A stretch of DNA of 64,000 bases, taken from assembly GCF_017348835.2 (NCBI RefSeq), contig NZ_CP071375.1. One strand, written 5' to 3'. This document shows positions 57,040-58,714 of the stretch, one piece after another; position 1 is the stretch's first letter, and each line of letters begins with the position of its first letter. Source of the stretch: Escherichia coli. GTDB lineage: Bacteria > Pseudomonadota > Gammaproteobacteria > Enterobacterales > Enterobacteriaceae. The position numbers were made by a program, and so were the translations under genes. Below the pieces are notes generated by a model, which worked only from the letters and a program-made list of their open reading frames with translations, had not been told where the DNA came from and searched no databases.

Positions 57040-57770
57040 TTCAAATGCGCCTATAAGGCTCTCTTACCAGCCGCGCCCTAACAGGCGCACACGATCTGAC
57101 ATTTGCATCCAACTTCGTTACTTACGGCCCGTAAACGGGCTGCCCGGATAGGGAATCGATAACTGCTCTCCCATTTTATCCTCTTCAAGCTGGTGCTTTA
57201 TGTAATCCTGTATCTTCGCCGTGTTCTTACCCACTGTATCGACGTAGTACCCTCTGCACCAGAACTCCCTGTTCCTGTATTTGAATTTCAAATCACCAAA
57301 CTGCTCGTAAAGCATCAGACTGCTTTTCCCTTTCAGATATCCCATAAAGCCGGATACGCTCATTTTGGGCGGGATCTCCACAAGCATATGGATATGATCT
57401 GCACAGCATTCAGCTTCCAGAATCCGTACACTTTTCCACTCACACAGCTTTCTCAAAATACTGCCTATTGCTCTACGCTTCTCTCTGTAGAACACCTGTC
57501 TTCGGTATTTTGGCGCAAAAACTATGCGATATTTACAGTTCCATCGGGTGTGCGCTAAGCTCTTTTCGTTCCCCATTGGGACCCCCTTTTGATTTCTTGT
57601 TTGACACTTGCAGTTGCCAGACCGCAAGGTGTTTTAACAAATCAAAAGGGGTTTTAATAACTGGCTCAAAGCTGAAAGCTTTCCGCAACCCCCAGCCTAG
57701 CTGGGGGTTTTCTGTGCACAAAAAAATAGGCAGTGAAACAGAACCCACTGCCTATCTCATAAAGTTAACC
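57040..57770 (-). mobile_element. IS200/IS605-family element (IS200-like)
   Basis: Single tnpA plus terminal hairpins (cccccagcctagctggggg; taggcagtg...cactgccta); about 0.7 kb; ends approximate. Confidence 0.6.
57118..57576 (-). CDS. tnpA: IS200-type transposase TnpA (Y1/HUH)
   Basis: ORF 57118..57627 trimmed to MGNEKSLAHTRWNCKYRIVFAPKYRRQVF...; HxH motif DHIHMLVEIPPK and catalytic Tyr region. Confidence 0.8.
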   Translation of the reverse strand: MGNEKSLAHTRWNCKYRIVFAPKYRRQVFYREKRRAIGSILRKLCEWKSVRILEAECCADHIHMLVEIPPKMSVSGFMGYLKGKSSLMLYEQFGDLKFKYRNREFWCRGYYVDTVGKNTAKIQDYIKHQLEEDKMGEQLSIPYPGSPFTGRK

Positions 57771-58660
57771 TTTCCCTTTAGATGCCCCTTTCGTTGCTAC
57801 TGTTTTAACGACCTCGCCAGCAACTCCTGGTCCTTTAGCTCCAGCCTGCTGCGATCCTTTGCTGGCATTATCAACTGCCGAAGATAATGCTCCACCGATT
57901 TGAACACCGCTCCAGCTCACAGCACCAAACCAGAACATCGGCAGCACCACATACATCGCCCCCAACACCAGATTCATGATCCAACCATCAGAGCCAGAAC
58001 TCGCAAGCCAATTATTGAAACTGTTGATGTATCCTCGATAACTGGCATATAAAAGCTGGATAAGTTTGTCATCCAGCCAGCCCCCAGTTCCCACCAAAAC
58101 GGAACAAAAATTATCGCAAACATCGCAAATGTAATAGTGACTACTACCTTTGGATCATACGCGCCAAACAACATCACCAGCGGAATGCATATCACTATAG
58201 CCATCAGTAAAATAGCATGAACCATAGGCAACGCCTGTCGAAGTGCATCAAACGCCGGTAACTGCGTCGCTTGCGCACTAAAAGCACCCAGGCCGCTTAG
58301 GAATTCTTTAATACCGGTGTCAATACCCGTTCCATGTCCTTGTTGATTCCCTATCATATAGGTATCACCACCTCCGGACATATGTATATTCTGTGGACTT
58401 ACCAACCAGCGAAGAAGGCTTTCCTCCCAATTATTCGGAGATTTCGCCTTCATCATATTGACTGTACGTTTATCAAAACTATCCAATAAACGACTTTTCA
58501 GCCCCTTCCCTGACGCGCTCCACCAGTCTTTGCACGTCGGATAATCGCCATCAAGCAGGAGAGTTTTGAGACCGGCATCGGCACATAAGCCTGCCAGGTT
58601 GGCAGATTTAGTAGACTTACCTTCACCGCCTTTGGTAGAAATTACTGAAATTACATGCAT
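57765..58660 (-). pseudogene. Decayed ParA/Soj-like ATPase N-terminal fragment joined to a membrane-protein remnant
   Basis: ORF 57974..58693 begins MHVISVISTKGGEGKSTKSANLAGLCADAGLKTLLLDGD (deviant Walker A) but loses ParA similarity after about 50 aa; continues in a hydrophobic segment that overlaps ORF 57765..58097 in another frame. Confidence 0.4.
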
Positions 58661-58714
58661 ATAAGTCACCTGTATATGATTTACAGGTAACAAACGTTCT
58701 ATACGTGTTTAAAT

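Follow-up and report, generated by a model that had tools for sequence, protein, structure and literature searches.

A frameshifted parA::traG fusion at the end of an ICE remnant in the pheV locus of Escherichia coli

The open reading frame at 57765-58693 of the window (the whole 64,000-nt stretch of Escherichia coli DNA analysed here) is, with high confidence, a non-functional scar left by a single large internal deletion in an ICEEc2/SPI-7/pKLC102-type ICE at pheV. Illegitimate recombination at a 3-nt (imperfectly 8-nt) microhomology probably brought about the fusion of codon 40 of parA/soj, which is the gene nearest to attR within the element, to about codon 250 of traG. The deletion took out ~35.8 kb, i.e., the rest of parA, dnaB-PI, parB, topoisomerase III, the coupling-protein gene traD, the entire GI-type T4SS and the 5' half of traG. 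By a chance in-frame join it created a 298-aa chimera of 40 aa of P-loop sequence and 258 aa of the TraG C-terminal membrane region, which a G6-to-G5 slip in the sublineage of the window then cut to 228 aa. The resulting pseudogene marks one end of a remnant further eroded by an IS3-associated loss and the insertion of IS200C. The comparisons below demonstrate the anatomy, the junction, the frameshift, the sequence of events and the restriction to one lineage, and the mechanism of recombination and the lack of function are inferred from them. The coordinates of the features discussed below are collected in Table 1.

Table 1. Features of the pheV locus, in window coordinates
Feature	Position	Strand	Basis or remarks
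Intact tRNA-Phe (pheV), attL side	49433..49508	+	ARAGORN, Rfam tRNA; PE164 annotation with yqgA-speC-nupG upstream
ICE tyrosine integrase, 320 aa, full length	49721..50683	-	Pfam Phage_integrase 5.4e-17; length and position as in MS1170
TraI_2-type putative relaxase, 463 aa, full length	50694..52085	-	Pfam TraI_2 7.5e-34, TraI_2_C 1.6e-19; same length in MS1170
IS3-family element (transposase 53611-54824)	53561..54866	+	PE164 annotation; Rfam ALIL pseudoknot
IS200C (tnpA 57118-57576)	57015..57719	-	PE164 annotation; Pfam Y1_Tnp 6.5e-37; ~45 bp downstream of traG stop; empty site in MS1170
STnc490, Hfq-binding leader RNA of IS200	57586-57709	-	Rfam, 144 bits; inside IS200C
3' part of ICE traG (TraG_N-domain membrane protein)	57765..58544	-	codons ~250-509 of a 509-aa protein; frameshift inside; stop 57765-57767
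Two overlapping ORFs, together 57765-58693	58693->57974 and 58097->57765	-	239 aa from TTG; 110 aa
Frameshift site	58081..58085	-	G5 in gene sense (C5 on + strand) against G6 in PE164; sole indel relative to PE164
Deletion junction, TTA common to both parents	58542..58544	-	three-way alignment of window, MS1170 parA and MS1170 traG
5' remnant of ICE parA/soj	58542..58660	-	codons 1-40; ATG at 58660; ends ...LLLDGDY
Inverted repeat ACCTGTA-N7-TACAGGT	58668..58688		perfect 7-bp arms, read from the sequence; just upstream of parA start
attR, 48-nt direct repeat of tRNA-Phe 3' end	58717..58764	+	49-bp BLAST match to pheV containing 1 gap; short of one G in CCGGGCACCA
Terminator hairpin 3' of displaced tRNA end (AACGGACCTCCATGGAGGTCCGTT + T-run)	58775..58798	+	terminator scan; same hairpin after attR in DCE7 and L028
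P4-type integrase 5' stub, 17 codons (ATGGCACTGACCGGCGCAGAAATCC...)	58914-58965	+	just beyond attR; 3' end of lymphostatin-like gene follows directly, next to 59032
LifA/Efa1 (lymphostatin)-like toxin gene	59032-63999, runs off window	-	TcdB_N, TcdA_TcdB glycosyltransferase and Lymphostatin_delI domains; 2,978 aa in PE164

Composition of the fused reading frame

The longer of the two overlapping ORFs, which includes MHVISVISTKGGEGKST..., has its biological start at the ATG, as in intact ParA homologues, and not at the upstream TTG. The earlier note had pointed to a deviant Walker A of the ParA/Soj type, to a subsequent divergence into hydrophobic sequence and to an overlap with another frame, and all three observations prove accurate and lie far beyond chance. 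First, the pattern KGG..K[ST] matches at residue 10 counted from the ATG (K10-GGEGK-S16, with KGGEGKS at residues 10-16), and ParA-type Pfam profiles are detected in the 239-aa ORF (CbiA 7.5e-8, AAA_31 8e-7, ParA 2.2e-6), all of them only at profile positions 1-41 and within the first ~40 residues. Second, the hydrophobic part comprises three Kyte-Doolittle stretches of the TraG portion (in the reconstructed protein, about residues 139-174, 168-192 and 227-250). Third, the overlap of the frames reflects a genuine 1-bp frameshift.

Over the only 40 aa that align, the N-terminus is 80% identical to a 291-aa ParA (WP_000558185.1), and the parA part shares 93% nucleotide identity with the parA of the ICE in strain DCE7 (BLAST). 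A complete ParA ATPase domain of ~200-290 aa, with Walker B and the switch regions, was sought in the ORF and not found: the NCBIfam ParA_partition model scores 32.6 bits against a cutoff of 180, over profile positions 1-52 of 203. Everything past the A' strand is missing, including Walker B and the dimer and DNA-binding surfaces. In its location the gene resembles the Soj/ParA of PAPI-1 and the parA of SPI-7/ICEHin1056/ICEclc-type islands, which are likewise deviant Walker A ATPases encoded by the first gene inside the end opposite the integrase. The soj gene of PAPI-1 of P. aeruginosa, a parA homologue, is needed for maintenance of that element (Qiu et al. 2006, as summarised in PMC2704930 and PMC4489591). 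Unlike PAPI-1 Soj, residues 1-40 of ~291 alone remain here, and hence neither an ATPase nor a partition function would appear possible.

The ParA share amounts to only 40 of 298 codons, with TraG making up most of the ORF. In the longer ORF, residues 43-204 match TraG_N (PF07916; E = 2.1e-17, 63.7 bits against a cutoff of 36.1) at profile positions 199-377, and the 110-aa ORF carries the match on at positions 379-459 of 462. A full-length TraG_N domain in a single open frame was not found: profile positions 1-198 are absent, and the 1-bp deletion splits the remaining match over two frames. The description of the ORF as a ParA-like remnant was thus right as to its 5' end, which is genuinely that of parA, and overstated the ParA share, as the hydrophobic part is the C-terminal half of a TraG_N protein. 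TraG_N proteins of GI-type T4SS are typically ~500 aa long and distantly related to the N-terminal region of F-plasmid TraG. The C-terminal ~260 residues found here, with their three hydrophobic segments, are 91% identical to TraG of E. coli MS1170 and 34-88% identical to ~500-aa homologues from Citrobacter, Proteus, Yersinia, Salmonella and Pseudomonas; unlike the intact proteins, the copy in the window is frameshifted, its N-terminal half is missing and the partner T4SS genes are absent.

Among 5.8 billion protein clusters searched, the combination of a ParA-type and a TraG_N domain was recovered in a single cluster, all of it from E. coli; the remaining matches were either ~500-aa TraG_N proteins aligned over the TraG part or ParA proteins of 291 aa, which align with 16-21% of the query. 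The chimera was accordingly rejected as a natural domain architecture. Nor does the ORF align end to end with any one intact family, which the earlier note had named as the result that would speak against its reading: it aligns piecewise, to two genes that lie 35.8 kb apart in an intact ICE. As the ParA piece lacks Walker B and any dimer or DNA-binding surface, and the TraG piece lacks its N-terminal ~250 residues and all T4SS partner genes, we infer that the chimera is non-functional.

The deletion junction and the frameshift

The parental sequences can be approximated from E. coli MS1170 (NZ_CP056077.1), which carries an intact ~47.7-kb ICE of the SPI-7/pKLC102/ICEEc2 type at the same pheV site. 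Upstream of window position 58542, parA, its leader and attR are 95.5% identical to MS1170 and 93% identical to the ICE at pheU of DCE7, and over the ~39 nt displayed directly upstream of the junction the match to MS1170 parA is perfect, up to 58542, ending ...GGCGATTA. In the three-way alignment the match to MS1170 traG starts at TTATCCGAC... and runs onward from there. The crossover falls within the shared TTA (58544-58542), which is part of an imperfect microhomology, GGnGnTTA, with 6/8 positions matching. The BLAST boundaries are sharp and abutting (parA side upstream of 58542, traG side downstream of 58550) and agree with this placement. At the protein level ParA ...LLLDGDY is joined onto TraG (GG)Y-PTCKDWW..., and the 633-nt offset in traG is divisible by 3, so that the fusion is in frame. 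In the intact MS1170 ICE, 35,821 bp separate the two junction points, and this deletion size, like the extent of the microhomology, is an estimate drawn from MS1170 rather than from the true parental ICE, MS1170 being only 84% identical over most of the traG part. The three-way alignment reveals no IS end or repeat at the junction, only the TTA microhomology, which points to a one-off, illegitimate, microhomology-mediated deletion as the probable origin of the junction.

By BLAST, the traG part as a whole shares 84% nucleotide identity with MS1170 traG, and the unshifted form of the protein, as found in E. coli PE164, shows the above-mentioned 91% identity to MS1170 TraG over residues 249-509. 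Separately, the traG remnant is a mosaic relative to MS1170: its last ~250 nt (57765-58010) are ~100% identical, and the preceding ~580 nt (58010-58544) only ~80%. This contrast suggests past recombination between ICE variants inside traG.

The frameshift is best understood by comparison with PE164 (a pig isolate; NZ_CP114128.1), from which the window differs between 45600 and 64000 by two substitutions and one 1-bp indel in 18.4 kb. At the site of the indel MS1170 reads CTGGGCGACTGG in the intact frame (CTG GGC GAC TGG), and PE164 reads CTG GGG GGC TGG. A D-to-G change made a slippery run of G residues, of which the window subsequently lost one. The outcome is a 228-aa product (58660 to 57974), with the remainder of traG readable in the +1 frame to 57765. 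The suggestion of a frameshifted or fused relic was well founded on both counts: ParA residues 1-40 are fused to TraG residues ~250-509, and the G6-to-G5 change follows within the traG part.

A single-base difference from PE164 in a G5/G6 run is a typical site of homopolymer error, and the window could on this account truly encode the 298-aa chimera, its frameshift being an artefact of sequencing or assembly. Such an error is exceedingly improbable. The exact 228-aa product (WP_241098378.1 and others), together with the 70-aa ORF downstream of it, occurs on 8-13 contigs from several independent NCBI assemblies and from Logan assemblies of raw SRA runs, in two different right-flank contexts; furthermore, L025 matches the window at 100% identity across a stretch of 3,979 bp that includes the site. 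This recurrence in independent assemblies led to the rejection of an assembly error, and the G5 form is taken below as a real allele.

The unshifted 298-aa form (WP_089553178.1) is annotated as a CDS in PE164 and occurs on at least 35 further contigs (61 index blocks), as against 13 contigs with the shifted form. That most carriers retain an intact in-frame ORF is a counter-point to a dead scar. It can be read as retention, but fits equally well with a recent neutral scar, given that the remnants are 99.8-100% identical among carriers. The stronger version of the former reading is that a genuine, selected chimeric membrane protein, i.e., a ParA tag followed by the three C-terminal TM segments of TraG, is expressed from the parA promoter and serves, for instance, to exclude or hinder incoming related ICEs, with the window carrying a recent loss-of-function allele. 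In keeping with this, the fusion is in frame, and the parA start, its Shine-Dalgarno-like AGGTGA and the upstream inverted repeat are all retained. This repeat overlaps the AGGTGA, and its arms, though not its spacer, are kept in the DCE7 ICE; judged from its sequence it could be an operator or an RNA/translational hairpin. However, an in-frame join is expected by chance in 1/3 of cases, the architecture is confined to a single near-clonal lineage of E. coli, the frameshifted allele has spread to at least 8-13 contigs without compensating change, and a scan of 57600-59100 for sigma-70 consensus promoters found no promoter-like site. The carriers are also too alike for selection to be measured. 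A selected chimera is hence given hardly any credence in comparison with a non-functional deletion scar.

The element at pheV and its intact relatives

The DNA directly following the functional pheV, from 49509 onward, is ICE sequence, and the remnant therefore spans 49509-58764 (~9.3 kb), bounded by pheV and the 48-nt partial tRNA-Phe copy. The element thus lies in the 3' end of a tRNA gene with a direct repeat at its far boundary, its integrase adjoins the tRNA, and parA/soj lies at the opposite end, as in the intact elements of MS1170 and DCE7. The attR copy, the displaced original 3' end of pheV, is located 56 bp upstream of the parA ATG, and strains differ in what lies beyond it, the change falling exactly at the tRNA end. 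As an observation on attR itself, positions 58759-58761 read CCGGCACCA, one G short relative to pheV; this variant occurs in all strains with the lymphostatin context and in neither the gsp-context strains nor L028, and it therefore travels with the neighbouring P4-type island.

The placement of a partition gene opposite the integrase, which had been put forward from the sequence alone as an ICE layout, is indeed that of the MS1170 ICE at pheV and of the DCE7 ICE at pheU, in both of which parA adjoins attR and the integrase adjoins the tRNA. From its far end inward, the MS1170 element contains attR, parA, a small ORF, an SPI-7-type dnaB-PI, parB, a STY4528-family replication protein and cargo, followed by topoisomerase III, traD, the full TIGR0374x-0375x/PFL_47xx set of ICE T4SS proteins and the conjugative ATPase. 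Then come traG, cold-shock cargo, an integrase-domain protein, antirestriction, ArdC, TraI, integrase and pheV. The proposed origin from a degraded ICE gains support from this intact element at the same site. The two share their gene order (pheV-int-TraI-...-cold-shock cargo-traG-T4SS-...-dnaB-PI-parA-attR), with 95-96% nucleotide identity over the retained segments and 84-100% in traG. Unlike the MS1170 ICE, the element in the window lacks 35.8 kb and a further 4.6 kb of backbone and carries IS3 and IS200C; self-transfer would hence not be possible. The GI-type T4SS, the TraD coupling protein and the conjugative ATPase are absent, the whole interval equivalent to MS1170 2884120-2919931 being missing from the window, and TraI_2 alone is left. 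For want of this conjugation machinery the element is classed as an ICE remnant rather than an ICE.

In the broader context, pheV and pheU are hotspots of the SPI-7/pKLC102/PAGI-2/ICEHin1056 class, with ICEEc2 as the E. coli representative (PMC11537424, PMC6761156). ICEEc2 of the avian E. coli BEN374, considered here through the papers that cite it, belongs to the pKLC102/PAGI-2 family (Roche et al. 2010, as cited in PMC11537424 and PMC6761156) and shares with the element in the window the type of integration site, tRNA-Phe (pheV/pheU).

With the PE164 annotation transferred, the locus reads nupG-speC-yqgA, pheV, integrase, TraI, two hypothetical genes and IS3, followed by a 102-bp stub of the integrase-domain gene (54867-54968), a cold-shock-domain gene with two small ORFs, IS200C, the chimera and the lymphostatin-like gene. 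IS3 stands in place of 4.6 kb of ICE DNA (MS1170 2922908-2927516), which in MS1170 contains an SH3-domain gene, ArdC, antirestriction and most of the integrase-domain gene. The truncated integrase-domain gene and the cold-shock gene are separated by a non-coding stretch in which Rfam detects STAXI (77 bits, 55699-55885, minus strand) and EFASI (86 bits, 55111-55262, minus strand); the intact MS1170 ICE has a ~125-nt STAXI-like unit in two further locations, one close to the topoisomerase III/STY4534 region and the other close to the integrase-domain gene.

Lineage, order of events and significance

The same junction, along with IS200C, is found in sister strains (L014, L016, L029, L030 and L032) in which the native pheV terminator and yghD/gspM-C come after attR. 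These retain the antirestriction/ArdC/SH3 segment and thus lack the IS3 deletion. That deletion is accompanied by a P4-type island beyond attR in, among others, the window, PE164, L017-19 and L024-27 (all with the lymphostatin-like gene) and in L028 (with a different, intact P4-type integrase). The G5 allele, in turn, is present in only some of the IS3-carrying strains. These nested distributions, i.e., sister strains that share the junction without the IS3 deletion and IS3 carriers with or without G5, establish an order in which the parA::traG deletion and IS200C preceded IS3 with its 4.6-kb loss, and the latter preceded the change from G6 to G5.

What lies to the right of attR takes three forms, which part exactly at its tRNA end: the native pheV terminator with yghD/gsp, the P4-type lymphostatin-like island, or the different intact P4-type integrase. 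This could be explained if the ~9-14 kb remnant, with its integrase, TraI relaxase and attL/attR, were still an excisable element that can be mobilised in trans, and the full-length integrase and TraI and the presence of both att repeats are in line with such a capacity. However, every contig with the exact integrase shares the ~10-kb core left flank (window 39721-49432) at 99.9-100% identity to the window, as expected for one lineage, and no copy turned up elsewhere, for example at pheU. Continued excision is therefore regarded as unlikely, and independent movement of the remnant between its three neighbours was rejected on account of the shared core flank. The simplest reading is vertical descent in one lineage, with P4-type islands being gained and lost at the tRNA copy in attR.

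A more ambitious proposal combines these possibilities, in that the chimera is made as a small three-TM protein, or the int-TraI-att remnant still excises, or both, the remnant then being a parasite of, or a barrier to, intact ICEEc2-like elements entering pheV. This is considered very improbable; if true, it would imply interference, exclusion or trans-mobilisation directed toward such elements at pheV. Under the preferred reading of a non-functional deletion scar the biology is ordinary, that of a decayed ICEEc2-like element at the pheV hotspot, and nothing new is added to the well-known decay of ICEs to immobile islands through internal deletion. The value of the locus lies elsewhere. The exact junction at 58542-58544 offers a handy clonal marker for a single E. 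coli lineage, and, combined with the IS3 and G5 alleles, puts in order four steps in the decay of an ICEEc2-like element, beside a lymphostatin-like toxin island. Additionally, the RefSeq names for the ORF, "TraG N-terminal domain-containing protein" or "AAA family ATPase", both fail to indicate a chimera of two genes.

The toxin gene lies immediately outside the ICE remnant, where the P4-type integrase stub abuts it directly; a second, older pheV island thus also lost its integrase by deletion. At the position of this 17-codon stub, L028 carries an intact but different allele of the P4-type integrase. A separate arrangement is seen in L031 (GCA_014105405.1, 1-10963), which has the same integrase and core flank, with TraI truncated at a copy of IS3. 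There, TraI/IS3 is followed by a two-partner-secretion/filamentous-haemagglutinin-like gene of 3,037 aa and then by an Ail/Lom OMP gene, which makes this a further and different decay state of the same element.
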